From Leptogorgia sarmentosa (taxonomy: Eukaryota), in the NCBI GenBank assembly GCA_964658305.1, contig OZ210885.1, positions 4,092,001 through 4,156,000 on the forward strand: a DNA stretch of 64,000 nucleotides, given 5' to 3'. Within the stretch, counting starts at the first letter, position 1. The number at the start of each line of letters is the position of its first letter. The notes beneath the pieces are model-generated. The model worked only from the letters and a program-made list of their open reading frames with translations, was not told the origin of the DNA and searched no databases. Made by a program: the position numbers and the translations under genes. Positions 28,301-56,500 of the stretch are shown here, piece by piece.

Positions 28301-30206
28301 CTTAAGAAACTTTTGCCTTGGCACAACGATGCCTTGCGAGGTTATTCTGTGTTTAACTACACTGGGATACTTGACGACTCTCTGGTGCAGCATCTTCGTG
28401 ATGACATGGGAAAATGGTGGTCAGAAAACATGCATACTCTAGAGGGCGGAATGCACAGTTTGGCCGATGCTTTTTTCGGTACAGAGAAGCTGAATGAAAA
28501 TGTCCTTCAAACCAACGCGCAAGTGTTCAAGATTAAGTACTCTTCACTACATTCGTCACCCAATGAAGACATGGTTGAGGTTTCGTGCTATGCAAATGAT
28601 TATTACCCTGAGGAACATAAATACACAGCAAAGGTACGTTTATTAAACTGTTATTGGGTTTAGTGACAGGAACTTGTAACTACCTTGTGACTAGGTTATT
28701 ACATCGTTATTACAACAGTTGATTGCCCTAAGTCTGTTATTGGAGCATTTGATTTTTTGCTTGTTTATTCTTGTCACATCAGCTAAAATTCGATTTCAAG
28801 GGAAACGCGGGAGAATTAATGGCACTTCATTGCGCAACGTTGTTAGGTCTCTAACAAAAAATCTAACTCAAACAAAAGTGTACGATTGTACACAAAGGAC
28901 GAAAACGCACCTTTCGTAAACGACATAGCAGTTGTTCTAAATATTACGAGACAACAGGACAGTATGAAAATACTAATAACTTACGCTTGAAGTCGTGCCC
29001 TTTGTAAGTTTAATTTGTAAGCCTTAAATTTATGTCAGGTACAGCCAACCACATACGTGTTACTAAATACGAGATAGTATATCAAATAAAAAACATTGAA
29101 ATTTATTATTATGCTGACATTTATTGCTTAAAACTGAAAGATGCAAAGTAAGTTAGTGGGAAACTGTTGGACACCCAAACATTTGAAAGTGTTTTGAGCC
29201 ACTTTAGGTTTGATAAACTATATTACTCTGTGCTCTTATTTATTACAGGCTGTAATTGTCACCACATCAGTGAATATACTACGGCAAATCAAGTTTGAAC
29301 CACTTGTTTCTGACAAGAATCAGAAACAAGAACAACGAAAAGCATTCCAAGCCATCGAAGACATCTTCACTGCAACGTCGACCAAGATAATCTTGCAAAC
29401 CAAAACAAGATTTTGGGAAAACAAAGGAATCCAAGGTGGTTTCTCTAAGACAAACCTCCCCATTGGTCAAATACATTACGTCAAACCTGATCCCGGATAT
29501 GACTCCACCAATCAAGGAATAATATTGATTTACACGTGGAAGAATGAAGCATTGATTTTTGGCTCCTTAACACAAGATCAGGTCAAGCAGGAGGCAATTG
29601 ACCAACTCGCAGAAATCCACCCGGAAATCAAGGAAGATGGTATGGTTGAAACTTGTATTGTTCATGCTTGGCACAACCAGCCCTCTTATCAAGGTGCCTT
29701 TGGTCTTTTGAAGACACATCAGTTTCAGAATATCAGGTAGGAGTTTACAAAAATGTCATCGAAACAAACATAATACAATTTAATGAATTTATATGTGCCA
29801 TGTGAAGCCCTTCAAGTGAAACGTTTAATGCCCTGGCTAACAATACTTTGCCCGTGGCTAACGCGTGCTTTGTGCGGCTATTGGAAGACGAGCGAAGCCA
29901 GTTAGTCAATTTCAGTGGGGGACAAGGTGGACATTTCAGTCTGTTGCGAATCACGGACATTTAATGCCGTGAGATTTTAATAAGATTCTTATAATATTTT
30001 TTGTGTTTAGATTCCTATGGGAACCAATGGGTAACGTATATTTTTCTGGTGATACCATCTCACTTGCTCCTGGTTGGATAGAAGGTGCATTAGAAAGTGG
30101 CCTCAAAGCCGCCTATCAAGTTTACGAGCGCCACCCAAAAATATCCGTGAATAAGTTATCAAAGTTAGGGAAACTGGTTGCGAAATGTTGTAATACTGAA
30201 ATATAA
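25370..30206 (+). CDS. L-amino-acid-oxidase-family flavin amine oxidoreductase, copy A, 630 aa
   Basis: Exons 25370-25781, 26035-26196, 26571-26651, 28080-28633, 29249-29736, 30011-30206 (1893 nt, GT-AG, in frame); motifs [34 protein letters not shown]; no signal peptide. Confidence 0.92.
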
Positions 30207-30809
30207 CTAGCTATGTGATGTTGGCAAATTTGAATCATATGTACCACGGTGCGGAAATCAGTACCAAATTTAGTCGCCAATTAATCGAAATTAACGCACA
30301 TAATGTCTTTAGAATACAAAAATTTGCAAACTTTGCAGGGACATATTTTTCGTATTTTACAACACTTCGTAAACGCACTTAATTATTACTGAACGACACG
30401 AATATTACCAATTCTAGTATGTTGCTTCTAGCTTGCTTTTACCTACATCAATTATATAACAATTAGATTACGAGCGCAAGATTTCACAATACAGTCTACT
30501 GTCATTGCCTTGGCGTGTTCACGCCTCGTGTTAAGTTCACGCCTCAATTATCAATGGAAAGATAATTGAAAACAGTGAGAATTAAAGACAGACAAATACT
30601 TCTCATTTTGAAATAATAACGATCAGGCACTTTGAATGTTAAAACTTTCGTATAGGATTATTGCTAAATTAGTTCATTTCTGTTTTGTTAACTTTTGTTA
30701 TCTTAAATAAACATTTGGAAAATGTTGGTATTAAATTTATGCATGAACTTCAGAGAAGAATTACATGTCTGTTTCTCCAATCGCATTGCTTCCGCTACAT
30801 CGCCCATGA

Positions 30810-31250
30810 TATAATTTTATAAAATAACATGTATATAACGCGTCCTCTGATTGGTCGAAATCCGTGTTTGGATCACGACCAAACACGGAATTTTAAAGTT
30901 CCGTCTTGACACTCAAACACGTCTGTTGTTATTTAATGAAACAATTACTTTATGTTTTCTGTGTTTGGGTGGTCTTATCCAGGCACTTGGGAATGTTGCT
31001 CGAGTGAAGAAAAGCGGGCAAAACACTCGCTTTTGCTTCGTGATTTCCCGCGCTTTTCTCAACTCTCGCAACATTCCCGCGTGACACGGACAGTTAAGCC
31101 CCGCACAGACGAGCAATTTTTCCTTGACAAATTTCTTGACAAGTTTATTTTCTCGTGTGTACGGCAAACAATTTTTCCTGGTTCAAAATCATGCCAGCTT
31201 TTGAACCAGCTCCTTGTCAAGGAAAACTTGTCAATTTTTTGTCGTACACA
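30810..31250. repeat. Composite repeat plus MITE fragment, direct copy of 51589-52043
   Basis: Near-identical ~350 bp shared with 51589-51980, with the same repeat-to-MITE order. Confidence 0.8.
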
Positions 31251-32844
31251 CGGCTTCAGCGTCCACGTGACTCCACGCGGCTGATCTATAGATAAATTGT
31301 CTCCAAAATATAAATTTATTTACAGAAAAGATTTTTGTATGTTAGTCAAAATTTCCGAGCGCCGTAGGCGCGAGAAACCTAGGGGGGTCTGGGCCGCAAG
31401 GAGATGCAGATCGGCCCCTAGACCATATGTGATAAGCACCTTGTCTTTTAGCGAAAGGTAGCATTTGAACCAATAAGCTATATTACGGCTTCGTATTTAT
31501 ATACGTTACACTCTTGAGGAGTGGTTGTTGTGGGACTTGTTTTGTGAATTTCATTGCGCATGCGCTTACGTCAAAATTTGTTTTCTTCGTTTTTTCAACA
31601 TCCCAGACATTGTGAAAGTGTTAAAAGCACGAATTGTCAAGCAAGAAACGAAAAAAAATTGTTTGAGTGAAAAAACCCGAAAATAATTTCGTCAAGCGCA
31701 TTGCGCTTGCGCGTACGTCAAAATTTGTTTTGAATAATTTCGTTGAAAATAATTTCGTCAAGCGCATTTTGAGTGAAGAAACCGAAAATAATTTCGTCAA
31801 GCGCATTGCGCATGCGCATACGTCAAAATTTGTTTTCTTCGTGTTTTTCAACCTCGGTAAATTTCATTGGCTTTTGTTGTTCGCATTGCACGAGAATTTT
31901 CTCTTTTGCGCTTAGCGGTCTTTTGCGACCTCGTTCGAATCTTGCTGGAGTCAATGCTTCCTATATAATCACGAAGCAAAGTACAGTGCAAGCTGCTACT
32001 ATGATGTCTTTTTATTGGACAAACAAACGATTTCATGAAAGGGAGAGCGACGTTTGAGAACCAAGTAATAACGAAAAGGAAGGACTGTTCTGGAAAAGAG
32101 CTGTTTTGTGGAGCCATACTTTGAGAATTGTAGTTTATTTTATACATATATTTATTACCATTTTACTGATGTAACATTTGGACCTTTCCTGTTTCAGACG
32201 GCGTTTTGAATCAAGAAAACACAGTAAACACAGTGATTCACACATTTTACAACGTTTTGTAACCAAACTTCACATTTTACTAGATTTAGGATGCTCATTC
32301 CAGCTGTGCTAACTTATTTTCTTAAATCAGTGCATGCCTGATTTGAATCCACTGCTGAATTCCAAAAAGTTTTGTAAAAAGTAAAGTTTCGGACAGCGGA
32401 GCCGCGACAAAATCGATAGAAGAGACTCGAAAGCGCCGTCTAACATACTAGTATAAAATAAACAATGCATATCATCTAATTATGTTATTATCATCTAAGT
32501 GTTAATAAATTACATTTTCAATTACCTGTCTTTTGTGCTTAGGAGATTATAGAACAAACACTCCTTTGTAGTCATATTGCGTGGGAGATTATAGAAAAAA
32601 ACAGTCCTTTGTACTGATTTTGCGTGGGACAAAATCACACAAAGACTTTATTTGCTTCATAATATTTGACACTTTTGCGTGATTTGACATTGTGTTGGTA
32701 CTAAAGGCAAGCACAATTTTACTCAAGCTAGACTTTTTGATCTGGTATAGGTAAAACATACACAGTATAGCCCACAAACATCTGACTACAAACATTGCGA
32801 TATATAGCTAGTTCGTTCACGGCAACCAGGTATAATATCACTCA

Positions 32845-33086
32845 TGTCTTGCTCGCTACTCTGGTTTGTATAATTGAATACAGAGCTCCCTCGAGGTGTA
32901 TTCACGACCCAACGTTTCGACACTCCAGTCTAGTGTCTTCATCAGTGATCTAGTGGGTGATCTAAAGTTACAACGCTTTAGGTCACCCCTGATGAAGACA
33001 CTAGACTGGAGTGTCGAAACGCTGGGTCGTGAATACACCTCGAGGGAGCTCTGTATTTATACAAACCAGACTAGCGAGCAAGACAT
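32845..33086. mobile_element. Long inverted repeat of Penelope-type terminal sequence carrying minimal hammerhead ribozyme cores
   Basis: Arms ~100 bp; CTGATGA-agacactagactggagtgtc-GAAAC at 32989-33020 (+) and its mirror at 32945-32908 (-). Confidence 0.75.
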
Positions 33087-33514
33087 CTGCGATATATTTT
33101 TGTTACAGTCAGTCGGCCATGATATGATTAATAATGCCATTAAGCCCCACAGTGGGATATAATAAACTAGTAAATTATGGTGGTGTTATCAGTTCGTGTT
33201 ACCCGACAATCCCGCCGTTACAGCACAATGGGAGAAGAGCATTGCAATATCATGGGAATAAAATTCAGGGCTGCTTAGAATTTTTTGGGTCAGGGTGAAA
33301 TTCCCTTTTGGGGTAAGGTTATTTTATACTCTATTAAGGGGCCCCTCAAAAGATACAGAATCTATTGTTATGATTTTTATTCAATGTGATGTGATTGGCT
33401 GAAATTTTCAGCAATATCGCTCAAAAATTAATCTTACTGACTGTGTCACTCGAAGATACAATCCGTGTAATATCCTCTATTTCCTCTTATCTAGGCACGT
33501 CTAAAGATTTCTTC

Positions 33515-34915
33515 ATGATGGAAAAATATGATGTCATTATTGTTGGTGGCGGACCCATGGGCCTTTCCTCAGCTTACCAATGTGGTGTTAAAGAGGGAAA
33601 GAAAGTACTTCTTCTTGAACGCTTTCACGAGTTTGCCAGCAAATATGGTTCAAGTGTTGGGTACAGTCGACAATTTCGCGTTAGTTATTCTGAAGAAAAT
33701 CTGAGTGCTCTGGCACTTAAGACCTACGACATGTGGGAAGATCTCAAAAACGAGTTGGAAGATGACACCCTCCTTCAGCTAACGGGCTGTCTCTGGTTCG
33801 GTGATGCAGACGTTAAATGCGGAGAAGGGAACATTGATGATGCCATTCAAAATTTGAAGAAACTTGGAGAAAAGGACTACAGAGTCCTTGAAGGAAGAGA
33901 GGCGATAATGGATGATAAAGAATTTGCCTTCGTTTCAGCAGCTGTGGCTAACATCGACAATCCAAAAGCCCTGTATACCGGCAAAGGTGGGACTATCAAC
34001 GTTCCTGGTTTGGTTGAAGGCTATGTCAAAGCTTTGGGGATACCAAATACTACGTTGATAACAAATGCATTCGTGACCAAGATCGACCACTCAAACGAAG
34101 AATTTGTAGAAGTGAAAGCGAACGTGGACGGCAACGAGAAAACGTACCGCGGCGAGAAGATTATCCTGACATCGGGAACATATATCAACGACGTTTTGTG
34201 CACTCTTGACCCTCCATTTCCCTATCGTATAAACCTGATCATTTACTTATGGTCTTCTACCTACTTCACAAAAAGAGTTGACCTGCCTCCAAACACAGAC
34301 CCTGCTGAATGGCCAATATGGTTTTTCTTTGGTCCAAAACCGACGGATGGCGGAGACGACGTCCCAAAGGATTACAACGATTATTACGGATTTCCGAGCG
34401 AGCCAAATCGTCCCCAATACCTTAGGGTTGCACCTGCATATACCTCACAAAAAAAATTCGACTTCATGCTCTCCCCACCTGCTGAAGACAAAAGGCCATT
34501 GGATGAACATGCTTTGGACTTTACAAAGAATTTTGTGGAACATTGCATGCCTGATTTGAATCCACTGCTGAAGAAAGAGGAGGAATCTACTTGTGTCGCT
34601 GGTTTTGCGTGCAAAACTGGGGGTGAAGAAGATAAAGGTGCTGGGTTTGTAGTTGATTTTCTACCAGGTTCTAAACGTATCGTCTTATTCACTGGCGGCT
34701 GGGCAATGAAGTTTGTTCCGATGATTGGAAAGATCCTCACCGATCTTGCAATCCGTGGAAAGACCGAGTACCAAGACCTCATCGAACCAATGAATATCAA
34801 CCGAGGAATATTGGTAAACGCAGATGTATGTCCAGTTAACCAAGCGAAAATGTCGAAAATGTCGGTCGCTCGAAAAACATTTCGAAAGATTTGGTGTTGT
34901 TCCCAAAAACACTAG
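33515..34915 (+). CDS. Intronless NikD-like flavoenzyme of the monomeric sarcosine oxidase family, 466 aa
   Basis: VGGGPMG, SRQFR, LWFGD, GGTI, YYGF, STCVA (putative covalent-FAD Cys), GWAMKFVP; splice acceptor ttcctcttatctag at 33494 precedes the ATG. Confidence 0.9.
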   Translation: MMEKYDVIIVGGGPMGLSSAYQCGVKEGKKVLLLERFHEFASKYGSSVGYSRQFRVSYSEENLSALALKTYDMWEDLKNELEDDTLLQLTGCLWFGDADVKCGEGNIDDAIQNLKKLGEKDYRVLEGREAIMDDKEFAFVSAAVANIDNPKALYTGKGGTINVPGLVEGYVKALGIPNTTLITNAFVTKIDHSNEEFVEVKANVDGNEKTYRGEKIILTSGTYINDVLCTLDPPFPYRINLIIYLWSSTYFTKRVDLPPNTDPAEWPIWFFFGPKPTDGGDDVPKDYNDYYGFPSEPNRPQYLRVAPAYTSQKKFDFMLSPPAEDKRPLDEHALDFTKNFVEHCMPDLNPLLKKEEESTCVAGFACKTGGEEDKGAGFVVDFLPGSKRIVLFTGGWAMKFVPMIGKILTDLAIRGKTEYQDLIEPMNINRGILVNADVCPVNQAKMSKMSVARKTFRKIWCCSQKH

Positions 34916-37105: not shown

Positions 37106-40100
37106 CTAGTTTTCTGAAGATAGTTCCAACAGTTGCTTCAGTAAACCATCTTCATTCTTCAACAGTGCTTGAGGTGTGTCACAGTCAACAATATTTCCTT
37201 GATCCAAGAGCATTATTCTGTCACTGTCTAAGATTGTACTCAAACGATGTGCAATAGTTATGACCGTGCAATCTTTGAAAACCTCTCGAACAACATTTTG
37301 TATGTCTTCATCTGTCTTCCTATCCACCTTACCCGTTGCTTCGTCAAAAATGATGATCATGTTCTTCTTCAGCAGAACTCTTGTTAAATGTAACAATTGC
37401 CGTTCGCCCAAACTGAAATTTGAATCACTTGAATTAATTTCATTATCAAGTTTTCCAGGCAGATTTGAAATAGCAGATTCCATTTTAGTCTGAGCAAGAG
37501 CCGCCCATATGTCGTTGTCGCTGTGTTCTCCCAAGGGATCAAGATTGATTCTGATTGTACCGTTAATCAGGATTGGAGCCTGGGAAATAACGGAAATTAC
37601 TTGACGAGAAGATACCACATTGATCTCTCTTATATTCAAACCATCCACAAATATATCTCCCTCAGTTAAGGCAAGTCTCATCAACGCAGCTACCAATGAT
37701 GACTTGCCAGCTCCGGTACGACCAGCAATTCCAATTTTTTCTTTTGGTTTCACTTTGAATGAAATATTCTTCAGGACTTTAGGGCCACCCTTGTAATGCC
37801 ACAATGAGACACTTTGAAACTCGAGTCCACCAGCGTTCGGCCATTTTTCAGGGGAGGACTTGGGGAGACTTTGCCCACGTTCTTGTGGAATTTGAGTGTA
37901 AGCCATAGCACGTTCTGCTGACGTCATCTGGGCGTTAATGACACCGAAAAAACGAACAACAACTCTCACTAATGTGTTGGTTTGTAGTGCGTAGAGAATA
38001 GTAATGGCACCAAGTTCTATAATAAGGTAGTACAATTATATAAGCGCAGCAAGTTTCAACAGTCAATGTGTAGCATGCAGTAGCATTCTGAAAGTCTATG
38101 ATCACTATATAAATTAAATATAGTTTTGACGGTTTTGAAAAAATAACCAATTCGCGCAGTCTTATTATTTCCAAAGTAGACTCGAAACAATGCTATTCGA
38201 ATGAGAAATCATACTGGGTCTGGATGGAGTATAATTGATGATCTTTCATCAATCAATTGCCTACATTTAAAATGAATTTTATATAAATATTTGCATTCAC
38301 AACTGAGACAATTGAGTCAGCCGCCATGTTGATAGTCAGTTAATTACTAACCATAATAAATTTTATTATACGCGGCCAACATTTGTTTTGGCAAATGGCG
38401 CAATCTGATTGGCTGCTGATGGGGGAGGATTTTCCCGTATTGCTCACGGGAAATACGCAGTTTTTATTGCCCTGTCAGGAAACCAATCACAAAAAGCTTT
38501 AAATTTCAATGCGATTTCATTTTTTAAAGTAGAAATTATTAAAATGCGCAACGAGGATTATTCTGAAAGCCAGTTTTATTACCCATAGTTTAAAATGAGG
38601 GATACGAAACTGTTTTTTGTCAGCTTAAACAGTATAATAATTTGGTATATTATACCTCAAATTCAAATTGTCCAATGAAAAAACAGCATTTGTACCACGT
38701 GATAGTGTGATTTTTTACGGTATTTCACTAAAATTCATGATTTCGCAATCCAGCGTGGGATACTATAATATCCCACGGCAGATCCACCGTGCGTGACGCG
38801 TGGGCAACACGCGCTTAGCATAGCTAATTAGATATGCAAGATGTCGGGCGAGCAAGACTCGGGCGAAGAAATAAATAAAGTTTTTGAAAACAATGATGCA
38901 AAAATGTTTTGTTCGGTATAATATATCATTTATAGACCCTCCGCTCGTGGGATTCGGCGTAATATCATCACTTCGGGAAATATTACGCCGAATCCCCCTC
39001 GCTCCGGGTCTATAAATGATAATTATTCGTGCATGTCGTTTGAGCTCATTTCGAAACGCACATACAGTATGCCATATAATAAAAAACTTACTGACTTCGA
39101 CTGTTCGGGCTGTACGGGAAAATATCAAACCTCGGTCTTTCTGCATGTATTAACTCTCGGTCAGTAAGTTATTAATATTGCAGTCGGACTGCATTCAGTT
39201 TTGTCTTCCACGATATTTTGCACAATTCGCATGTGAAAAAACAATAAAAAAAGTGAAACGTACTTGCTGTGTAGGTATCCTTTGTAGAAAAAATTATTAC
39301 CACTGTAATAATTCCTGCCACAAACGTTGTTAAGCCGCAGCAGACTATATCAAAACATCTGGATGAGGTATAAAATGACAGAACTGCAGCAGTGTGCTTG
39401 TCAATATGCCTGCAAGAAATATAATGTAAGTTGTAAAAAAATAATGTAAAAAAAATATTAAGTAAGCTAAAAGACGCCGTCAAAAGGGGTCGTTTAGCGT
39501 ATTAGTTTTTTAGAGACGTTCAGATTTACCAGTTATATATAGTTTTAGGATAAAGTGAAAATAGATTGAGAAGTTACACCCAGTTCCTGAACGGCAAAAT
39601 AAAATTCGACGTTGAAAATAGGTAAAATGCATACAATTACAAATCGTATCTACACGAAATATTGGCATACGTGATCACAATTGTTCTGCCGTTGCGGTGG
39701 ATAACAGCATAGGTAGCCCACATATACACTTATTTTTATAGCTAATATTTATCTCAAAAATCGTTAAAAATAATGAAAATGTATATTTGAATGTTATAGT
39801 TATGTCTTTCGTTGCTTAATGTGCCTCTCATTAACTATGCACTCAGTGGCTCTCACGCACGCAGTTGATGTATATTAAACAATTATTGAATGAGGTCGAG
39901 TAGGGTATGAGGAATTATTAAGGCCGAGGTTTGTTTTATTTGTCGAAGCCGAAGGCTGAGGCAAATAACACAAACCGAGGCCTTAATAATTCAGCATATC
40001 CTACGAGAACCGAATTCAATAAATGTTTTATTATTTATTTGTATCTTTATCAGACCTAGGGTAAACCGACTTCTTTGAGAAAGCCATTTGTATTTTTCAG

Positions 40101-42671
40101 CTTTTGGCATAAGCAGCATAAATTAGTCGACGTCATAATGTCATATAATTTTCAATATAAGACATAATTACGTCATAATGTCGTATATGAGGATTTAATG
40201 CACTGCTCTTAACCAATCAAAACTATTGAATTATTTGAAATAAATAATAAACTTATATATTATACGACAATGACGTCACCTTACCATATAAGGGCAAAAC
40301 AGAGTGCAGATACCCAGCCGTATTGCACTCGCCGTATTGCACTCTAATATACTGCTGTTAGTATACAGCAGCAGTAACTATAGGCAACTAATTTACCATG
40401 CAGAGTCAAATATACCTGAAGACTTGTTCTGTATATTCTTTCTGCCTGGAATGAATTCTAATAGTTTTCAGACCTTCCATTGTGTTGGAGAAATGAGAAT
40501 AGACAGGACCTGCTGCCATCAGCATCAGACGTTTTAAATCGGTAGATGAAGTAATATAGACACTTCCAATGAAGTAAAATAACGGCATGGAACATAAAAA
40601 TGCGAGGATCAACCAGGGATTTGTGATGCTAGCCAGCAATATGGTGGAAATGACTGGTGCAAAGAAGTTTAACGTTACACAGGCATAATACGGAAAAAAC
40701 TCATCCAGGATGTTGATATCTTGAGATAAACGGTTTAGGATTCGACCGACAGGATTTGTCGCGTAAAATGATAAGGATGCTTTCATAAGGCACGTAATCA
40801 TCTTGTTATGAACCTGAAAGATTATTCAAAATTTTAACATGCGTTTACAACAGCTAGGTATATATATTTTTACAGATATACACTCACCTTATAGGATGAA
40901 CTCATTAAAAGTAGGAAAATTCCCAGCGTACCCACAACCGTGAGTAGTACTGCAAAAATAAGGTAAATCATGTACAAAACGAACATGTGATGAAGTCTAG
41001 AGTTTCCATCCCCGGCAAACGTTGGGAATTCTGATGAAATGATGTTCACCAAAACAATTAAACCTAAAAATAGAAAACAAAAATTTTGATTTCTATAAAG
41101 TATTGGCCTTTTGTTTGATACTTATTAATTATAGACCTGAATTGGGCGAGAATATTTCCTGAAGAAATAAAAGGATTGTTGGATACATAGCAATTTTTTT
41201 TGCTGTAACATTTCCTAAACCTGCATTAAAGTGTTTGAATATATTTTGTTCGTTTCTACATTCATTGCATGCATGCAAAAAGATGTATTTTTGTTCGGCA
41301 TCATATATATCGTTTACATACCTACATCCAGTCATGATTGCCACTACTCATGGAAATGAATTAGGCGTGGGTTCTTTTCGTAAATATAATAATGTTATTA
41401 CAAAAATACTAATTGTGAAAGCCCCTTGACAAGTTGCACTTATACAGACTGACCTACTGTAAGATGCATGGATATCTACTGTCGCGCAAAATAAACAGCA
41501 TTCACACTAGTCTATGGTTTACGGACCCGTGAAGAAATTATTTTAAGGATGGTCACGTAATTCCGATAAGCATAGTGTAGTTCTGCGTTTTAATTGCGTT
41601 CCTTGGCGCTTGGATTTTGGATTTGGCAAGAGGAACGCCGTTCAAACGCCCGACAAAAATAGGGGGGGGGGGACGTCGTTCACCCTGCAAACCATCACTG
41701 CCTTTATCTCGGTGTATTCCACTCTTAATAGCTACTAACCTGCACCAGAGAAATAAAGCACGGGGACAAGAAGCACGATAAACGGGGAGGCTCCGTGAAG
41801 TAAATATTTCAAGTAAACTTTCAAAGAAACCGTTCCACTCTTTCTATCTTCCTCTTCTTGTTCAAGGTTGACACCTTCCACAGATTCTTTATTATCAGCC
41901 CATACGTCACGTTGCTTGCCATCCTTTGAACTAGTGTCGTCTACAACAGATCCATCAAGTGGAATTGTATTTTTCAAGGTTTCAAAATTTCCTTGAAAGG
42001 CAATCACTCCTCCTTCTCCCAACTGGACAATACGATCAGCCATTGGATAATATTTTGTCGCATGTGTTGTCAAGAGAACTATTCGATCAGATAATAGTCC
42101 TTGGATACAATCTCTAGATTAAAACAATGACATTTATAATAAATATTGTAAAATTTGTCCTTTCAATTATCCTGGATTAGATTTCAAACTTTTATTTCAA
42201 ATTTTTCTCAAATTTTTCATAGCTTAAATCCCTTTAGCTACTATTTGATTTCTCAACATTTTTAAGTGACATTAATAAATATTCAATTTGACTGTTCGTG
42301 TATGCATTTTATAAAGTGTCGAATCTAAAACCTGCAGTTGACATTCAGTTCCTAGCGATATTTGAATAAATCTTATTTTCAATATGATTAACAGGTAATC
42401 GCATGGGGTCCTCCTTAAATTAAGGTTAAAGGTAATTTGTAAAATTTTGGAAACACGCGTAACATTAATCCTTAATTTTACTCGGCCCCATGCGATTACC
42501 TACACAAATCCTTCGGGCAGAACATGAATATACACTCCCCCGAAAAATTAACGCTCTAGCGACGTCCCTGTGAATGAAGAACTGTGATTACTGCCCAGGC
42601 ATTTCAAAAGATTCATTAACCAGGCCCAACGGGTTTATTTACGCCATCTAATCTATCTATATATATATATA

Positions 42672-42754
<83 letters not shown>

Positions 42755-45700
42755 ATATATATATATATATATATATATTAGACACTTCCCAATACAATAC
42801 CATGAAATTTAGGGGTGGGGGGGGGGGGGGGGTGCGCATAGAACAATGATTTACATTCTCCCTCTCCCTTTTGCACATTACGATAAAACTGAAATGAATA
42901 ACTAACCTGAAGAGATTCTCAGCGACATTGATGTCCAAAGAGCTCAGAGGATCATCCAATAAATATATATCAGCTTCAGAATAAACTGCGCGTGCCAAAG
43001 CAATGCGTGTACGCTGACCACCACTCACGGTCGCACTATTTTCTCCTATACGTGTTAAATCATGTTCCGGAAAATTATCAAAATCCTTTTCCAGCTGACA
43101 TGTCTTGATTATCTTGTTGTATTTGCTCTCGTTGTAAGGTAAACCGAATACGATGTTTTCACGAATAGTTCCGGGAAAAACCCAAGGCGAGTCAGAGACA
43201 TAGGCTAATTGACCAGAGTAGTTAACCGAGCCATTAGTCACCAATAACTCTCCTAGAATGCTTTGTAGAAGCGATGACTTCCCAGTTCCGACGCCACCGC
43301 ATATGAGAACCAATTCTGGACTAGCCACTTCAAGATTAATGTTTTTCAATATTGACGAACCTTCGGTTTTTGATTCAAAGAACTGGGAGGAACCACACGC
43401 CGAAGGAACTTGACAAGTTACGTCATTTAAATTAACAAATGGTATAGGAGAGCGTTTGGATTCTTTAGGTAAATCATCCAATTTTACTTTAATCCAGTTT
43501 TTCGCACTTTGAAGAGATTTATTTGATGAATTATCAGTTGCTGTTAGAAACATTTCAATACGCTGAAGAGCACCACGGACGTCGCTGAATAATCGTATGG
43601 TTGTTGGAATACCAACAGCAGCCGATGTATTAATTATTCCAAAGAGGTATATCATGGAAAAGAAATTCAAATATGCGATGTCATTTCTTGCGGTGTAAAT
43701 TAATGTGCACACTGTGATGAAAGTTGCCAAATTTTGACCACAAGCCATGAATCCGTAACTTATCAATGAAATAATCCAACGTTTACATTTGAGTTTCACT
43801 TCTTCCCTAAGGTAAAGAAAATAATTAATTGCTTTATTACTTTTTGAAACAATGAAAAAATTTCTGTGGAATTTCTTTAGTATAGCGGCAAGTTCTTTGC
43901 TATTTTGTGGACATTTACATTCGTTGCTTTCAAATAATCTTCATAAAAAGTTTTTTACAAGCTTCCGTTGATTTTTTTATGTTATGCGAAACCTTTGATT
44001 ACAGTTTCTTCAAGGTTGGCAAACTTTCACCTTTGAGGAAGCCGTTTGTTTTTGTTTTTGTTTTTTTCACATTCCCGTTTGAATCCTTCTAAAGATGATG
44101 TCGTCGTCATTGGTATGATGTCATCACGTGTTATAAAACTCGTCCACGTTATGACGTCATCGTTTAACATGACGATTTCATACATACTAAACCTCTGGTT
44201 GTCATATATTTACAACTATAGCAAAGCAGATTCTTTTGCCTTCAAAAGTGTATAAAAAGGTATTCCATTTAGCGTTAATTTGGGTGTATGAACGTAGTTT
44301 TTGCATCATCATGTAGGGCAAGGTCTTTGCTGTTGGATGTATGACAACGAGTATGTTTCTTTTTATACTTGTAGGAAGTAATTTTGCATCGGGGAATGAT
44401 TAGAACTAACCCTATCCTACTACTTGTTAAATATTTACCATCGTGTTTTCTGTATTTTTTCTTCGAAGATCTTTTCCCAACAGTTCACTTTAACGGAATG
44501 TATCACAGTCAGAGATTCCCTAATATAACCAAGACGTTTCTCTGACAAGCCAGAGGCTTTCTTACGTAAATCATAGTCAACTTTACTACAAAGCATCTGA
44601 AATACGACAAATGATGATAAAAAGATGGTGCCAGGTATGACTTGCCAGCCAATGTAGTAAACCAGCCAAGCTGTAGCGTTTACGGCTTCTGAAAATTGAC
44701 GAAGACCAAAAGGAATATACCATTCTCCACTGGTGACCAATCTTTGCGAATCATTGCAAACTAATTCCATCACGTGACCGCTGTTAACGGCCATTTTATT
44801 CAGTCTGAGCACCTAGATAACGCAGCATATAAAACAATTAACCATTCCCTGATCGATAACACAAAGCATCGTGGGATTTATTTGAAGGGACAGTGCAAAA
44901 CAGACCAAAATATTTATGGACACGCCGCGCGGCTGATCAGCTACGACTCTGCCAGCCACCCAATATTTGTGTACACCGCTGATTTTTGAACTATTTTAGT
45001 GAATATTTATAACTCACCTTTTTATACAACAAACCCATCACTCCCGTCTTGGCTTTGTTCCCTAGATTTGCGCCATGAACATTAAAACGAGCACTTCCAA
45101 ATATTTGCATCATAAATCCCAACACGAAACCATAAACATACATCATGGCATCTTCATAAAATCGGATGTTATTTTTGTTCTCCCCAAAGCCGCTTACTAA
45201 TTGCAGCAAACTAATGAGTGAATACCAAGAAATATTTTCTCCAACAGTCATAACAATCCAAAACACTAAGTACATCATGTAGTCTCCAAAATTGAAATAT
45301 CGTAGCATTGCTTTCCATAACTTCGAAGCCCGTTTATCTATAAATATAGCCAAAATTTATCGGTTGAACTTTGTTATAATTAATATACTGTTCTCAGCTG
45401 ACTTTTTTCTTAATATCATTGTAGTCAATTTCCTGGACGCTGATTGGCTAAAAAGCTTCAACAACTGTGCGAATTAAACATTAATTACACAGGTGTGTAA
45501 TTAATTTTTCAAATACCACGTTTTCGAGCCCGCGATACGCGAGCGGATAAATTTAAAAACAAGTAAAACTACAGTAAAATTTTTGTTTCTCGTATAAATT
45601 TACGATGGATTTTGATTTGTTTGATACTAAAAGGAAATTACACTTGTTTTCGAAGTATTAATGAAAAATTGCACTTGTGCCGAGGAAAAATCTCATTGCC

Positions 45701-46227
45701 CTATCAGTGCATTCGTGCCATGCAATCGCAATAAGCCTAATACTGTATATCTGTTGTAAAAAAACAAACATCTGTATTGATTTCAAACCCATTTTAGTAT
45801 ACACCCAACCATGGTCTATTACAAATGCTAAATTCTGATTGATTACTCAGCCGTTGTCTATTCCGTGATAGACCACGCTTCGCGAAAAAGCAAAGGAAAA
45901 CAATATGGCTACTGCAGAAAACTCGCCCTTTGCTGCAAAATTTTCTTGATAAAAACAATTAGACAACTTGACCTCGTTGTCTAATTGTTAAATAGTAACA
46001 AAATTGATACCTTTCTTTGCAGAATCCTTTTCCTGTTTCCATTTCTCTTCTAAACGTTCAGTGAGTTTACAGCTCTGATCTTTGTCTCTCACGTCGTGCA
46101 GGTCGTCTTGTTGTAGTGGACGTCGCCATCCTTTCAACAGGAGCGGAATGATCCACCACAACGCTACTCTCGATACAAAGTTCGCCCTCTCTTGCGGGTG
46201 ACGCTGTGACGTTTTCCCTGATTCCAT
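37106..46227 (-). CDS. ABC transporter subfamily C, ABCC4/MRP4-like, 1271 aa
   Basis: Exons 46227-46011, 45337-45018, 44812-44439, 43806-42907, 42113-41740, 41063-40888, 40813-40416, 39409-39264, 38016-37106 (3816 nt, phases consistent); lasso motif, NBD1 [21 protein letters not shown]2 [17 protein letters not shown]; no TMD0. Confidence 0.92.
42655..42778. repeat. (AT)n microsatellite in an ABCC intron
   Basis: AT run with two C interruptions. Confidence 0.95.
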
Positions 46228-46545
46228 TTTGCTGTTGTGAATGGGCTTCTCTCATAAACACCTTTGGTCAGGGTATACGATATTGTGAAGATTTAAGAGA
46301 AAAACGTAACCTCTGCAAAAGTTTAAGTATTATCTTAAGATGAGTGACAGGTTCGGCCGTTGAAAAAATCTTTAAACTAAAAGTGTTTTTATCCCTATAA
46401 CTAGAATAAATTGCATTCGATTGCATGTATGAAAAGATATTTGAGTTTTGAATTTAAGTTTTCTATCAGTTTTGTAGAATGTGAATAATTAACAAGAGGA
46501 GAAGTGAACTTTGAAAATAAAATTAACGAAAATATTAAATATATT

Positions 46546-46891
46546 GGCCCCGATTACACTATACCGTATTCCTCTGGAGCGTGGCGATTTTCTGGAGGTG
46601 ATATGAAAAGCAATCCGTATGTTTCGTAGCAGTGTAAACACTACAATCCGGTATTCTCGTAGTGTGCAAAAAAATGTTTTATGACAGCCATTAAATACTG
46701 GTATTGCCATTATTACTATATTTCACGAATGCTGCCTAGAAAAGTCGTTTTTGCTTTTAATTGAATGAATTTTAGCGGGATCTATATTACAAATGACCTC
46801 GGTAGAAACGGGCAAGGCGAGGAGCTGTACGGGGCGTTTTGGCAGTAGTGTGAACAGGCGTGCGTGAATCCGGTATAGTGTAATCCCAGCC
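46546..46891. mobile_element. MITE-like element upstream of the ABCC start
   Basis: Inverted repeats GATTACACTATACCG / CGGTATAGTGTAATC; no clear TSD. Confidence 0.55.
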
Positions 46892-47014
46892 ATAGCTACT
46901 GGATACGCACCTATTAATTAGAAATAAACGGTGCTATTTTAGAAGTAAATGTTCTGAACTTATAAAATTCCGTACAAGGCACGTGATTGTGATCAAGTTG
47001 GACAGAAGAGAGCA

Positions 47015-50000
47015 ATAATTTTGCAACAAAGCTAAGATACAGTCATACAGCATATATAATTGTTCCACTTGGCTAGTTCCAAAATACAATCATATACAAT
47101 CAACTGACATGGCAACTGAGAAACAACCCAGTGATAATAAATTATGTCTTAGTCATTCTATATTATTGAGATATTTTTTAGAAAATATTTCTGGTGGAAA
47201 TCACGAGTCCTCAAGTCTCAACCACAGTAGAACCGATCAGGTTGAAAGAAATCATTCGTGCAAAAGAAATCATTCGTGCATGTGATGTGTGGCACATCAT
47301 GCATGCCTAGATTATAGAATACTCGTCCACTTTTGAAACTGTTACTTGTTATCATGGTACGATGTTACAAATTCAGAAGAATAAGGGGAAATGGGGAATG
47401 ATATTTAAAAAGCCCGGGCAAGCTAGATATAATTTTTTACAACGATGTATGGATATTCACCCCCTCCCCCACAATCAATTAACGCTCTAGCATCAGCTCT
47501 GAGCTATGCTTCTTAAGGTTTCATCTATAGCATTCTCGACAATGTCTTCACACACTGCGGGTCTTGAAACGACCATTAGGCAAATGTAATCTACAAGTAA
47601 GTCCCCAAGTATAGTCCTAGCGAACGCCTCACAGGTGTCTTGTTATTTATATCGTCCGTTGCATACAACATTCTTCAGTATAAGACGAATCTGTAGATCA
47701 TTTTGTCTTACTTGTATTGCTCGAGTCAGGCAGTGTGAGGTGAAAATACTTGTGCAGAATAGCAGCAGGCTCGGCAATTATAACAAATGTAACTATGTAA
47801 GTCGCTCAGGTATGAATGTAGCTACACATTGAGTTTGAACACTTCATTATACTTGCTTACCTATATCAATCCAATTATCCAAATGATAACACTGTTTGAT
47901 AAATTTGTCTCTCAGCCACTGGACAAATTCTATTTCATTCGCCGAGTCGATTTTCAATGCTATAGCTATACAGATACCAAACTTTATAATGTTCTGTCTA
48001 ATTTCACATTTTTCATAACCATGGTCGGCTGCATTTATAGATTACCACAGAACTCTATATCTTTATATGTTTGTGCGGAAAGCGTAACAATTTTGAAACA
48101 AAGACACCGCATATATAATTGTTCCACTTGGTTAGTGCCAAAATAGAATCATATCAACCAAATAGCATGGCAACTGAGAAACAACCCATGCAGTGATAAT
48201 AAAATATGTCTTAGTAATCCTATATTATTAAGATATTTTTATAAGAAATATTTCTATCTGGTGGAAATCATGAGTCCGCAAGTCTCAACCATAGAAGAAC
48301 CGATCAGGTTGAGCGCTCCGAGGACAAAAAGAAATCATTCGCGCATGTGATGTGTGGCATATCATGCGTGCAAGAAATTATTTCCTTCAAAAATTCAGTA
48401 CAAATTCTCCAATGTGGCTAGATTATAGAATACTCGTCCACTTTTGAAACTGTTACTTGTTACCATGGTACAATGTTACAAATTCAGAAGAATACGCGGA
48501 ATGATATTTAAAAACCCTGGGCAAGATATAATTTTTCACAAGGAATATGGATATTCACCCGCTCCCCCAATGAATTAACGCTCTATCTTCGGCTCTGAGC
48601 TATGTTTCTAAGGTTTTATCTATAGCATTCTCGGCAATGTCTTCACACACTGCGGGTCTTGATACGACCATTGGGCAAATGTAATCTATAAGTAAGTCCC
48701 CAAGTAGTCCTAGCGAACGGCCCACAGGTGTCTTGTTATTTATATGATTGTATACAACATTCTTCAGTATAAGACGAATCTGTAGGCCATTTGTCTGGCT
48801 TGTATTGCTCGAGTCAGGCAGTGTGAGGTGAAAATACTTGTGCAGAATAGCAGCAAGTTCGGCAATTATAACAAATGTAACTATGTAAGTCGCTCAGGTA
48901 TGAATGTAGCTACACAATGAGTTTGAACACTTCATTATACTTGCTTACCTATATCAATCCAAATGATAACACTGTTTGATAAATTTGTCTCTCAGCCACT
49001 GGACAAATTCTATTTCATTCGCCGAGTCGATTTTCAATGCTATAGCTATACAGATACCACACTTTATAATGTTCTGTCTAATTTCACATTTTGCATAACC
49101 ATGCTCGGCTGCATTTATAGATTACCACAGAACTCTATATCTTTATATGTTTGTGCGGAAAGCGTAATAATTTTGCAACAAAGACACCGCATATATAATT
49201 GTTCCACTTGGTTAGTGCCAAAATACAATCATACCAACCAACTAGCATGGCAACTCAGAAACAACCCAGTGATAATAAAATCAAGATTGATTGTACCGTT
49301 AACCCGGATCGGAGCGTGGGAAATAACTGAAATTACTTGACGAGAAGATACCAAATATTTCTCCTTCAGTTAAGGCAAGCCTCATCAACGCAGCTACGAA
49401 TGATGACTTCCCAGCTCCGGTCCGACCAGCAATTCCAATTTTTTCCCTTGGTTTCTCTATATCTTTGTGTTTGTGCGGAAAGCGTAGCGATAATTTAACA
49501 ACAAAGACACAGCATATATAATTGTTCTACTTGGTTAGTGCCAAAATACAATCATATCAACTAACTAACATGGCAACTGAGAAACAACCGAGTGATAATA
49601 AAATATGTCTTAGTCATCCTATATTATTGAGATATTTGTTTAGGAAATATTTCTATCTGCTGGAAATCATGAGTCCGGTCTTAACCACAGTAGAACCGAT
49701 CAGGTTGAAAGAAATCATTCGAGCAAAAGAAATCATTCGTGCATGTGATGTGTGGCATATCATGCGTGCAAGAATTTAATTCCTTCAAAAATTCAGTACA
49801 AATTCTAGTCCAGCATGGCTAGATTATAGAATACTCGTCCATTTTTGAAACTGTTACTTGTTACCATGGTACGATGTTACAAATTCAGAAGAATAAGCGG
49901 ATGATATTTAAAAAGCCTGGGCAAGATATAATTTTTCACAAGGATATATGGATATTCACCCCCTCTCCCCCAATGAATTAACGCTCTAGCTTCGGCTCTG

Positions 50001-50605
50001 AGCTATGTTTCTAAGGTTTCATCTATAGCATTCTCAATGTGTTCACACACTGCGGGTCTTGATACGACCATTGCGCAAATGTAATCTATAAGTAAGTCCC
50101 CAAGTATAGTCCTAGCGAACGGCCCACAAGTGTCTTGTTTACTTGTTATATTTATATGATTGGCCTTTGATTGCATACAACATTCTTCAGTATAAGCCGA
50201 ATTTGTAGGCCATTTGTCTTACTTGTATTGCTGGAGTCAGGCAGTGTGAGGTGAAAATACTTGTGCAGAATAGCAGCAGACTCGGCAATTATAACAAATG
50301 TAAGTCGCTCAGGTATGAATGTACACAATACACATCGAGTTTAAACACTTCATTATGCTTGCTCACCTATATCAATCCAAATGATAACACTGTTTGATAA
50401 ATTTGTCTCTCAGCCACTGGACAAATTCTATTACATTCGCCGAGTCGATTTTCAATCCTTTATAAAGATACCACACTTTATAATGTTCTATCCATTTTCA
50501 CATTTTTCATAACCATGGTCGGGACCCGTCGGGTATATTATAGAACACCACAGATGTCTATATCTTTGTGCGGAAACGCCGGAAAGCGTAACAATAATTT
50601 AACAA
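47015..50605. repeat. Tandem triplication of a ~1.1 kb non-coding unit
   Basis: Units at ~47015-48080, ~48080-49160 and ~49455-50605, plus a partial unit at 49160-49280. Confidence 0.9.
49281..49455 (-). pseudogene. Degenerate fragment of an ABCC NBD2 exon
   Basis: Aligns to 37539-37751 ([14 protein letters not shown] region) with substitutions and two deletions. Confidence 0.85.
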
Positions 50606-51588
50606 CAGGGTGTTAAAAATAAAAAGGTCATGCAAACTTAGTCCGTGAGTGTATCTATCTAAAATCTTTACAGTTGTAATGTTGAATTGCCAAGGCAGTC
50701 GAAAGCTCGTCAAAATAGTGTAATCCAACACCAGCCGTAAATAATTTATTTGAACATTACTTAATTGATTATAATGAATATAGCATTTATACTTAGGGCC
50801 TGTTTATATGGAGGCGAGTTACCCGGTTGACCGAGTTACTCGCTTTGCCGGGACAAACAAGCGTTCTGTTTATATGGAACCGAGTTACTCGGCATTCATC
50901 TGTTCAACACACTGTAGTTACATGAAGTACCCTAACTTAGTAGTACATTAGAATGTACTACGCATGCGCTGTTCGCAAAAGTTCCTCCCGGCAAGCCGAG
51001 TTTCCCGTACCGTAGGATACGGACCGCTCAGCAACCAATCAGAAAGCTCTATTTAGGTTACGGACCGGGAGTTACGGACCGGAAAAAAATAAAAGCTGTT
51101 ATTATACATTGTAGATGGTAAAAGCAATCTGATTGGCTAAGAGCATACAGTTAAATCGCGCAATCACGCAACCCCCAGGAAATCCAGTTATCTGCTAGCA
51201 GATAACTAATTAGGTACACAATGAGCTTGTTTTCAGTATGGTTTCATAAATAAAGTTTTTCATGCGTTGATACTTCGTTTATTATTCTTCAAATGTATAA
51301 TAAAACAATTTTTGAATTCGGTTTTTTTGATATGCAAAATTATCAAGGTCTCGGTAAGGCTCGGCTGATAACGCTTACCTCGACCCTGATAATTCCGCAT
51401 ATCACAAAAACCTCATCCAATAATTGTTAAATATTTGACAGTTTTCAAAAAATTACAGAAATATGAATTTCCGATCGTGTTGCCATGACAACAACCTCAG
51501 GCAACCTTTGAAGTACTTCATGTTCCAAAAATATAGTTGCATTAATTGGTTAGTAAGGCGAGGGGTTGCTGCATGTATGTATTTCTAG

Positions 51589-52043: not shown

Positions 52044-53550
52044 AATCATCGAAGCATTCCCTATACCTTGCGAGTAGACTAGTTGTACTAATAGTCTTTA
52101 CTGCAAGTTGTCCATACTTATCTTGTGTTTCAATCCATACTCCATAGTCGTTGCTTCCCCTTCTTAGCGTTTTCTTAACATTTATGTTTTCTCAGAAGGC
52201 TTTTCAAGTTCTTGCAGCGTAGATCTTCTCTTTGTTTTCGCCTTTTTAAAAACCTTCGAACATAAGCCGCTGAAACATTGGAAAAGTTGTGGAAGGGGGC
52301 GGTGTGGGGTGGGGTGTGGGTTGCAGCATGTGAGGAGAAAAGAAAAAATGTTAGGAATATAAATTTAATGGCGCTTGTGTTCATTTCCGTGTTCTGATTG
52401 AGAGTAAAAACGATCCTGGTTGTTCATACATAAGCATATCGTGTTAGCCCATGTGAGCAAGATTCACATCATGACACAGACAATTTATACATCCTTGCCA
52501 AACCAAACATAAACCGAGGAGAAAAAAACTTGTGGTACTGCTACAGATTTTACTCACAACATGCTCAGTAATGATATACAGGGTTTCCGAAAAAACTGAC
52601 CTGCATAAATTAATTATGCATTCGATGAAATTGTTATTCACAATAATGTAATTATTATTCACAGTAGTTTGACGAACTTGATTTTTCTGTACATACTGTC
52701 ATACAATAAAGCGATTTCGTTTTAATGAATATATAATTTTTATATCATTACCACGAGAGCTATGCTTTGTTCATCATGTTGATGATTTAATATGGTATGG
52801 TTTCTCACGTGACGAACGAAGGGAGCGACGAATGGGTAAGATTGAGAGATGTGATTTTTCCGTTTGTACCATGCAACAGCTTTTTCCCGTCCTATGTTCG
52901 ACTCATTTTTCACTGTTTTTGTTTTAACTTTTGATGAATTTGGGTGGAACCCGGGGTCTGCTTTATAAGTTCGCCACCCACCCACAAATCTTAAGGCGGC
53001 AAAATGTACATCTATTTTCTGGCTACTTTTAATTATAGAGTAGAAGTTTTGCTGCCAACACTATTTAGTTCTTAAAATGGACAACTTGCACTAAACACTA
53101 ATATTTGATGTAGGTAAAAACAAGGAAAGTCGATAAACGTAGTTAGGAGAAACATAATAGAACTAGAGGGCATTCAAAGACTGCATACGCATATCTCCGC
53201 CAGCAGCAAATTTCGCTGACACCACATTTTACCCGTGATTAAGCATTCAGAATATCAATTAACTTCATTACGCATTACTTCATTACATACTTTAAACAAT
53301 AAAGCAACGAAAGTTTTATTTCATGAATTTTTCACTTGATTCTCAACCAAATTGAACCAAAATTTAATTATCTCTTCCTTGTGCAATGGCCAACAATTGT
53401 GAAAAGTTTTGTGGCCAAATGGCCAAGGTTCGTTCTTTCGCAAGTTATCATGTTCACACACCAACACACACATTCGGTCCATTGGTAACTAAATTTGATA
53501 CGAATTTCCGCACGTAATACATATGATTCAAATTTGCCTACATCACAGAG

Positions 53551-56500
53551 CTATACTTCAGTATTACAACATTTCGCAACCAAATTTTGCAGTTTCTGTA
53601 ATTTTGATAACTTCTTTACGGAGGTTTTCGGGTGGCGTTCGTAAACTTGATAGGCGGTTCTGAGACCACTTTCCAAGGCACCTTCTACCCAACCAGCAGC
53701 AAGTGATAGGGTGGCACCAGCAAAATGTACATTACCCATTGGTTCCCATAGGAATCTAAACACAACAAATATTGTCACTTGGCCTGAACAGTGTTTAACA
53801 GACTATTAAAAATCCATACTTTTATTACTTTAGGGCAAGACGTATAAACCCACAATTCAGACAATTTACACAATTTTTTTGGTAATAAAAAATGCCCTTA
53901 GAAAAATTGCTTGAGCAAAAATGGGGCTGTGATAAAACACCGAACAGTGTGTAAATTTGTTAGTATGGTGACACCACAGATAGCAGTGAAACATTTCAGA
54001 TAAACGATAATTATTTTGTAATTTAAATCAATTGAATGACTGTGTAGGTTATCTTAATTAAACTGCAATCTTAAAACGGTACTAAAGGTTTTTGTATAAA
54101 TGTTTAATTGTCCTTATTTCTACTGGAGTCTGCGAAATCATTTGTAGGATTGACGTTTGGAATAGAATAGAATAGAATAGAATAGAACAGAATAACATAG
54201 AATAGAATAGAATAGAATAGAGTAAAATAGAATAGAATAGAATAGAATAGAATAGAATAGAATAGAATAGGATAGGATAGGATAGGATAGGATAGGATCG
54301 AATAGGATCGAATAGGATAGAATAGGATCGGATAGGATAGGATAGAATAGGATGGAATAGGACGGGATAGGATAGGATGGAATAGGATGGAATAGGATAG
54401 AATGAGAATGGAGTGGGATGGGATGGAGTAGCATAAGATAGGATAGGTTAGGATAGGGCAGGACAGAACAGAACAGAACAGAACAGAACGGACAGAACCA
54501 AACGGAACGGAACAGAACAGAACGAAATAAAACGGAACGGAACGTAATGGAATAGCACAGCAATCAGGGAAAATGCCGAAAATCTTGAAGGCGGAAAAAA
54601 TTAAAATGGCGGACTTAAAGTTGCTATATTAACTTTTTTAAAGTTGAGCAACCTTGTTATTGTGATGGTGTTCAAATTTGAAGAAAAATCCGGGATGATG
54701 GCCCTAGAATTTTAGGCAGTAGTATAAATTGTATTATGCTTGTTTCTGAGTTGATGCCTGTGATGTGAAAACGTTTAGTTGATGTCCAAATTTTCAAACA
54801 CGAATTCTTGTCGGGAAATTTGAAAGTTGTAATGACTTCTATTGGTTAAATCTTCCACTTAAAATCGCCTGTGTATGCTGACAATGCGTGCATATTCTCA
54901 CGCACAAAAACAAATCAGGCATGTAACTTTAGAAATACCTACCTGATATTCTGAAACTGATGTGTCTTCAAAAGACCGTAGGCACCTTGATAAGAGGGCT
55001 TGTTGTGCCAAGCATGGACAATACAAGTTTCAACCATACCATCTTCCTTGATTTCCGGGTGGATTTCTGCGAGTTGGTCAATTGCCTCCTGCTTGACCTG
55101 ATCTTGCGTCAAGGAGCCAAAAATCAATGCTTCATTCTTCCACGTGTAAATCAATATTATTCCCTGATTGGTGGAGTCAAATCCGGGATCAGGTTTGACG
55201 TAATGTATTTGACCAATGGGGAGGTTTGTCTTAGAGAAACCACCTTGAATTCCTTCGCTTTCCCAAAATCTTGTTTTGGTTTGCAAGATTATCTTTGTCG
55301 ACTTTGCGATGAAGATGTCTTCGATGGCTTGGAATGCTTTTCGTTGTTCTTGTTTTTGATTTTTGTCAGAAACAAGTGGTTCAAACTTGATTTGTCGTAA
55401 TATATTCACTGCTGTGGTGACAATTACAGCCTGTAATAAATGCGATCACGGAGTATTATAGTTTATCAAACGGTTCAAACCTGAAGTAGCTCAAAACACA
55501 TTCAAATGTTTGGGTGCCCAACAGTTTTGAATGATCAATCTTGTTTTAAATATGTATTTTGAATATCAACCTAAATTTCAATGGCTTTTCTTTCATATAT
55601 GTCTAGCTTTTAGTAACACATATGCCGTTGGTTGTGAGTGACGATTGACGAAAACTTAGGGAAGTATTTTCATACGGTTCAGTGGTCTCGTAATGTTGGG
55701 CTAACATTAACAAGCTATATGTATCTCGTTTATGAAGGTGAGATTGTCAAACGGAAATCGAATTTTAGCTGGTGTGCCAGACAAAAATAAGCAAAAAATC
55801 AGATGCTCTTTTAATTAATAACCTCAGCACAATCATCAACGGTTATAATAAACCTAGTGACACAAGGTAGCTACAAGGCCATGTCACCAAACCAGTAACA
55901 GTTTAATAAACGTACCTTTGCTGTGTATTTGTGCTCTTCGGGGTAATAATCATTGGCATAGCACGAAACCTCAACCATGTCATTTGGTGACGAAGAAGAG
56001 GAAGAGTATTTAATCTTGAACACTTGCGCGTTGTATTCAAGGTCATTTTCATTCAGCTTATCTGTATGAAGAAAAGCATCGGCTAAACTGTGCAATCCGC
56101 CCTCCAAAGAATGCATGTTATCTGACCACCATTTTCCCATGTCATCGCGAAGATACTGCACCAGAGATTGGTCAAGTGTCTCCGTATAGGTAAACACAGA
56201 AAAACCTCGCAAGGCATCGTTGTGCCAAGGCAAAAGTTTCTTAAGGATATCCGGATCTGAAGGATCTTCCCAGTCAGGGACCATTGCCATAATTACGTCA
56301 TAAGTGCTCAGGAGGAAGCTTTCTAAAGTGAACTGACTCCAGGTGTTGATCCAGTCATTCCAAACTTTGATTTCCTCAGCAATTTTTCCTTTATGTTTAC
56401 GTATTTTCTGTAACTTCTTTTTCAACTGGTTGATGGCAACTTCGGTTGTTTTGCAGTAATAGGTACCTAAACAAAGTTACAATGTATCTTTACAATACAA

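Follow-up and report, generated by a model that had tools for sequence, protein, structure and literature searches.

What do two L-amino-acid oxidases (LAAOs) and a NikD-like flavoenzyme do side by side in the genome of the octocoral Leptogorgia sarmentosa, and why do all three end in a basic segment followed by Cys-Cys? The window analysed here is a stretch of 64,000 nucleotides (assembly GCA_964658305.1, contig OZ210885.1, positions 4,092,001 to 4,156,000 of the forward strand), and all positions below refer to it. It is animal genome DNA with introns and transposon remains, and the closest named relatives of both enzymes come from octocorals (Paramuricea, Dendronephthya and Xenia). Between 25 and 60 kb the gene order is LAAO copy A (LAAO-A, + strand), the NikD-like gene (+), an ABCC-type transporter (-) and LAAO copy B (LAAO-B, -). 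In this study, we observed that the LAAO/NikD-like pairing is, judged by gene order and fusion, kept as neighbours or fused proteins from bacteria to soft corals. A route from lysine to picolinate is, by a modest preference, our explanation for this conserved oxidase pair.

In Xenia the LAAO and the NikD-like gene lie on one scaffold (XP_046845956 and XP_046845958), as they do in Paramuricea (CAB3977974 and CAB3977976, with the CAB3977975 gene between them), and in Dendronephthya XP_028414031/32 are found between LAAOs 027 and 033, again on one scaffold. In a more distant animal locus (L008) both genes are 2.5 kb apart in the DNA. An amine-oxidase match was present within the available DNA in 13 of 40 metagenome loci, one of them weak. 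Bacterial-type operons with gaps of 17-22 bases (L014, L015), open-frame fusions (L018, L021, L024) and divergent neighbours (L029, L033, L034) were all observed; a generic-pattern scan of genome contigs gave real loci in 2 of 79 cases. In Bacteroidota the NikD-like gene shares operons with an oxidase gene of lysine-oxidase type. Of 401 Flavobacteriaceae genomes, the two that carry the NikD-like gene are also the two that carry the oxidase, each time next to it. The partner oxidase of Flavobacterium humi scores 1256 bits against the L-Lys oxidase 7EIH/7EII and is a close relative of the AncLLysO/CaLLysO enzymes of Chryseobacterium, Flavobacterium and Pedobacter. According to the available part of the published description, the 7EIH/7EII enzyme is an alpha-oxidase that works best on L-Lys and also uses ornithine and arginine (PMC8405998).

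Of the best 150 profile matches, 30 exceed 520 residues, and these were scanned for fusions. In 22 of these 30 long NikD-like relatives the partner is a PF01593 domain (13 NikD-first, 9 LAAO-first). The NCBI name of the octocoral relatives, 'Putative bifunctional amine oxidase DDB_G0291301', indicates the same two-domain fusion; fusions of this type were found in P0218, L018, L021 and L024, whereas the animal genes are separate. A further LAAO-first fusion on an A+T-rich contig (L037:1-2262) has one in-frame stop (1357-1359) and perhaps uses another genetic code. The remaining fusion partners among the 30 include a SABATH methyltransferase (5 proteins) and an amino-acid dehydrogenase (3 proteins). 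P0364 joins dehydrogenase, NikD-like enzyme and methyltransferase in a single chain, and BLAST finds this N-terminal domain in P0367 as well; both are candidate one-protein homarine synthases. In P0299 only a second Rossmann motif was detected.

A fungal-type locus (L033:2382-12216) contains a PQ-loop protein, an LAAO, the NikD-like gene and an ornithine cyclodeaminase/mu-crystallin gene, and this gene set suggests metabolism of piperideine-2-carboxylate (P2C) or pipecolate. On a eukaryotic-type contig (L029:6165-11653) a methyltransferase, an LAAO and the NikD-like gene adjoin; L041 also carries a methyltransferase. The Streptomyces member sits in the order aminotransferase, NikD-like gene, AMP-ligase, which matches the nik cluster. 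Thus, three unrelated enzymes capable of deaminating at C-alpha are paired with the same oxidase, which suggests P2C as its family-wide substrate.

The NikD-like protein (33515..34915, + strand; PF01266; 466 residues in one coding exon) has the MSOX/NikD fold and NikD as its top PDB match, both by sequence (E 4e-41) and by fold (E 3.6e-36). With residues numbered from the sequence alignment to NikD, all 64 animal-clade rows retain R50, R53, E101, Y258 and C321, 63 retain W355 and 62 retain K358, and His is found at the W355 position in six of seven sarcosine-oxidase-like rows. Our reading of this pattern presumes the roles that we assign to Arg53, Glu101, Tyr258, Cys321, Trp355 and Lys358 of NikD. 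In a quick tree, which contained no pipecolate-oxidase (PIPOX) row and had long outgroup branches, a branch with support 100 separates the coral gene and the Streptomyces gene of a nik-like cluster from the sarcosine-oxidase-like rows. Of these residues, the shared Arg/Lys carboxylate pair is confirmed in the part of the source available (PMC6222107). The ESM Atlas returned clusters of the DAO family only.

The LAAOs match PF01593, and the predicted structure of the Paramuricea ortholog has the LAAO fold. At the N-terminus they are extended by about 80 residues (25370-25610 in LAAO-A; 59318-59080 in LAAO-B). This extension is common to the octocoral relatives, and the Paramuricea model gives a confident helical prediction for its first 55 residues.

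In the proposed route, the LAAO would convert lysine to P2C, and the NikD-like enzyme would, by analogy with NikD, oxidise P2C to aromatic picolinate. An N-methyltransferase encoded outside the window might then form homarine. The sequence lysine, P2C, picolinate is established for NikC/NikD in nikkomycin and CaeP1/CaeP2 in caerulomycin biosynthesis, according to the accessible portions of the reports (PMC4021061, PMC11446937, PMC8149447). As in both systems, the coral NikD-type oxidase adjoins an enzyme able to deaminate an amino acid at C-alpha. However, the coral first step would be carried out by a flavin oxidase instead of an aminotransferase, and the coral genes lie in an animal genome without a picolinate ligase or assembly line. 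The coral NikD-like enzyme itself differs from NikD, to which it is 28% identical, by a replaced Cys273 and an additional C-terminal tail. The methylation step is suggested by the SABATH fusions together with homarine in gorgonian octocorals, where it has been reported in the portion of the source available (PMC5880021).

Several observations weigh against this route. The octocoral adjacency in Xenia, Paramuricea and Dendronephthya was read from the order of accessions and the length of the scaffolds, not from coordinates. An LAAO was seen in 1 of 14 animal-type loci, a set with no octocoral-level match and mostly short contigs, and L010 and L011 lack one despite about 10 kb on each side. Among 21 tested fusions, only six contain an oxidase half of the lysine-oxidase type that partners the Flavobacteriaceae gene. 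The coral LAAO lies on another branch: its identity to the Flavobacterium lysine oxidase is 22% over 204 residues, vertebrate LAAOs are its closest structural matches, ahead of the Trichoderma-type lysine oxidase, and against the AncLLysO type we found no full-length similarity, only two short local matches onto which the Glu383 pocket could not be mapped. By these comparisons the coral LAAO is outside the characterised lysine-oxidase branch and forms the weak point of the route; hence lysine would be assigned as its substrate through its partner. At the position of NikD Cys273 all 64 animal rows have Val, Ile or Ala, as do most microbial rows. Four queries for methyltransferases gave no match in the window or the animal loci, and a published derivation of homarine starts from quinolinic acid in the available text of that paper (PMC8269262).

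Could the pair instead serve lysine or pipecolate breakdown? In that case the LAAO would make P2C, a ketimine reductase would turn it into pipecolate, and the NikD-like protein would act as a pipecolate or sarcosine oxidase without aromatisation. The ornithine cyclodeaminase/mu-crystallin gene adjoining the pair in L033, the sarcosine oxidases as next structural matches of the NikD-like enzyme and the loss of Cys273 would all fit. Yet Trp355 and Glu101 place the enzyme with NikD and apart from the sarcosine-oxidase-like rows, the SABATH methyltransferase fusions suit an aromatic acid product, and a pipecolate route requires no direct LAAO fusion, so that we consider breakdown unlikely. We give similarly little credence to another substrate (for example ornithine, converted to pyrrole-2-carboxylate) or to a family of expanded coral LAAOs that mainly makes peroxide for defence, with the linkage as a leftover. 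Such readings would draw on the distance of the coral LAAO from the characterised lysine oxidase, on the expansion of the LAAO family in Dendronephthya and on the use of ornithine and arginine by the bacterial enzyme, as described in the part of the report cited above (PMC8405998). Against them stands the retention of the linkage in four octocorals and L008. Defence LAAOs are secreted, whereas the coral LAAO has no signal-like N-terminus.

Homarine ranks with the most abundant small nitrogen compounds of ocean particles and serves gorgonians as a known antifouling compound; its biosynthetic pathway was called uncharacterised in the available text of a 2021 paper (PMC8269262), and the accessible part of a 2026 paper on homarine catabolism names no synthesis genes (PMC13236597). 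The available text of PMC9854754 contains nothing on the LAAO/NikD-like pair. In a literature search with most subscription journals and supplements outside its coverage, we found no report on an animal LAAO and NikD-like cluster or on homarine synthesis genes. If the route exists, corals would make the pyridine ring themselves, and the locus would add to the few known animal metabolic gene clusters. Such a two-gene animal route could be tested directly with two purified enzymes. The fuller scenario, in which corals and other early animals have a lysine-to-pyridine cluster that feeds homarine and, in this octocoral, separately acquired acylated tails keep both steps on a membrane beside an exporter, seems improbable to us.

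The second part of the question concerns the tails and depends on the gene models. LAAO-A (25370..30206, + strand, 630 residues) is spliced from exons 25370-25781, 26035-26196, 26571-26651, 28080-28633, 29249-29736 and 30011-30206; LAAO-B (53551..59318, - strand, 632 residues) from 59318-58907, 58232-58071, 57118-57038, 56466-55916, 55430-54943 and 53755-53551. Both models use AG/GT junctions and have a single stop each. An additional LAAO-A exon at about 26982-27075 was considered and proved unneeded, copy B lacking it and the frame being open without it. The two proteins share 570 of 633 residues, and their six exons correspond; the genes go back to a single recent inverted duplication that flanks the NikD-like and ABCC genes. 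The last LAAO-A junction (29736|30011) is spliced in contigs of runs X4 and X5, which are not recorded as RNA runs, splicing being deduced from the contigs themselves, and is absent from the X1 and X3 listings. One X4 contig follows the last LAAO-A exon through its stop with 0 differences, and the NikD-like tail region is uninterrupted in X4 and X5 contigs.

The spliced models confirm that all three oxidases end in a basic segment and Cys-Cys, as the first-pass annotation had noticed. In LAAO-A the tail (30129..30206, +; Cys codons 30186-30191) finishes with NTEI and the stop; in LAAO-B (53551..53637, -; Cys codons 53571-53566) the basic segment has a 9-base insertion relative to A and the end is NTEV. 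Residues 442-466 form the tail of the NikD-like enzyme (34838..34915, +; Cys codons 34895-34900), whose C-terminal end is ARKTFRKIWCCSQKH. Cys-Cys stands at -6/-5 in all three, and the net charge over the last 25 residues is +5 in LAAO-A, +5 in LAAO-B and +7 in the NikD-like protein. Because the LAAO copies derive from a single duplication, their tails count once, which leaves two independent tails, not three. The window yields 2109 six-frame stop-to-stop segments. Cys-Cys lies within the last eight residues in 26 of them and follows a basic stretch in five; the three tails are included in both sets, and the remainders amount to about 1.1% and 0.1%. This null exaggerates the surprise, since both ancestral tails were already part way there (a basic LAAO end and a NikD-like W-C end). 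The ends of LAAO-A (T-E-I) and LAAO-B (T-E-V) fit the class I PDZ consensus, which is [ST]-x-[VIL] at the C-terminus and is met by 91 of the 2109 segments (4.3%).

Between the LAAO and NikD-like tails no likeness was found at the DNA level (371 and 443 of 500 shuffles scored equally high). This supports a separate origin of the two tails and led us to reject gene conversion between them. Prenylation of the CaaX or Rab type requires Cys at -4, or Cys-Cys with at most three residues after it, and was rejected for tails with Cys-Cys at -6/-5. The tail ends also do not fit the rules for peroxisomal end signals.

The tails are not conserved in the orthologs, contrary to what a shared targeting device would lead one to expect. 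Four of 98 LAAO matches (P0123, P0140, P0168 and P0204) stop short of the last conserved motif and were dropped, which leaves 94. None of these 94 relatives has Cys-Cys in the last 15 residues, eight have any Cys in the last eight, and one has a class I PDZ-type end; the PDZ-ligand fit noted earlier concerns the ends of LAAO-A and LAAO-B and does not extend to the family. Octocoral-level LAAO tails are net basic in 15 of 16 cases, with a single terminal Cys in 2 of 16. Across these relatives, the basic character of the LAAO tail is old and CCNTEI/V is new.

For the NikD-like enzyme, 62 of 69 animal-clade representatives reach the tail (seven were dropped). Fifty-three of the 62 end in a loose F/L-x-K-hydrophobic-W/C pattern (basic F-x-K-I-W), 36 of these without Cys in the last eight residues, and 14 of the 62 have Cys in the last three. 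Cys-Cys occurs twice, in P0001, which is 98% identical to the window protein and its own cluster, and in P0058. A W-C-stop end is found in 10 of the 14 closest relatives; the first Cys is thus common to close relatives, and the second Cys with SQKH is confined to the window's own cluster. The conserved element is thus a basic aromatic end with an optional Cys, and it may bind membranes. Residues 442-466 lie outside the confident fold (predicted local distance difference test score below 50 save for one residue). Amphipathicity of the family tails is close to that of shuffles (median 0.49 versus 0.46), and the NikD-like and LAAO-A tails have a modest helical moment (shuffle fractions 0.047 and 0.057).

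Judged by these relatives, this lineage acquired its Cys-Cys tails recently, and at most they would tether the enzymes to membranes. The NikD-like enzyme would have inherited a basic aromatic W-C end and gained its second Cys through a short extension, possibly by stop-codon loss. The LAAO would have inherited a basic tail and lengthened it separately. The C-S-Q-K-H end is an extension. That it arose by stop-codon loss is a guess, with TGA as the one stop that can become a Cys codon in a single step.

Whether the additions were selected is a separate matter. The first-pass annotation had proposed that two enzyme families gained similar tails which are S-acylated and hold the enzymes on the cytosolic membrane face, perhaps next to the ABCC pump. 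Potentially, such a selected anchor could exist in this lineage alone, and it would be compatible with the pathway reading. It is favoured by the two separately derived tails with Cys-Cys at the same offset and by the low background of basic plus Cys-Cys ends. The codons for V-A-K-C-C-N-T-E, the last eight ahead of the final residue, are identical between LAAO-A and LAAO-B, and a third variant of the last LAAO exon (X4 contig, 14 differences) has none at the Cys codons, so that both are retained in three LAAO variants of this organism. Pure accident explains this retention and the shared -6/-5 position poorly, which counts against dismissing the tails. We found no hydrophobic N-terminal or membrane-spanning stretch in LAAO-A, LAAO-B or the NikD-like protein; the cysteines are therefore probably cytosol-facing, and the absence of signal-like N-termini together with the modest helical moments would suit an anchor.

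On the other side, a conserved convergent device is contradicted by Cys-Cys in 0 of 94 LAAO and 2 of 62 NikD-like relatives, and the separate derivation of the tails is what stands of the two-family claim. Identity between LAAO-A and LAAO-B over the whole tail (62/81) equals that of the 3' untranslated region (62/80) and is below that of the exon core (109/124), and in amphipathicity the family tails do not exceed shuffles. In one X1 DNA contig 53526-53567 is missing, a segment that covers the greater part of the second Cys codon together with NTEV and the stop; the contig could represent a dead copy or a misassembly. The coral proteins resemble yeast Yck2 as soluble enzymes with a disordered tail and aromatic residues just ahead of Cys-Cys. 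In the portion of the Yck2 report available (PMC3145546), however, its Cys-Cys is terminal and conserved, the terminal cysteines or a 10-residue tail alone are insufficient for palmitoylation, and Phe-Phe plus distant elements are required; the coral Cys-Cys is unconserved and followed by four residues. A selected anchor thus appears doubtful to us, though with some chance of being right. The tails alone matter less than the gene pair and would be, at best, a lineage-specific membrane anchor. Contrary to what had been suggested, they lend no independent support to the cluster; gene order and fusions support it instead.

The ABCC-type transporter (37106..46251, -) was recovered in pieces, with two ABC_tran and two ABC_membrane matches. 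Its protein ends in LELSSEN, which is no class I PDZ end, and no ABCC match was found in any of the 14 animal-type loci, none of which is at octocoral level, 10 of 13 measured ones extending more than 2.2 kb downstream (the distance in the window). The proposed placement of the tails beside the pump thus found no backing, and any role of the pump within the route is hypothetical.

Upstream of the ABCC gene, 47014-50607 contains about three diverged tandem units of 1.1-1.2 kb, and a near-perfect tandem array occupies 2180-4109. Remains of a long-terminal-repeat retrotransposon, which we take from its open-reading-frame translations to be Pao/BEL-like, lie at 13069-19096 (-) between 202-base direct repeats (13069-13270 and 18895-19096) that are 99.5% alike. 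At 6599-10713, transposase pieces are broken up by reverse transcriptase fragments, presumably hAT-like and LINE-like, respectively, by their translations. In X1 and X3 the contig depth is very high at 31266-31939 and 32614-33287, upstream of the NikD-like gene, with opposite-strand joints near 32870-33010; these segments are high-copy repeats, one of which is palindromic.

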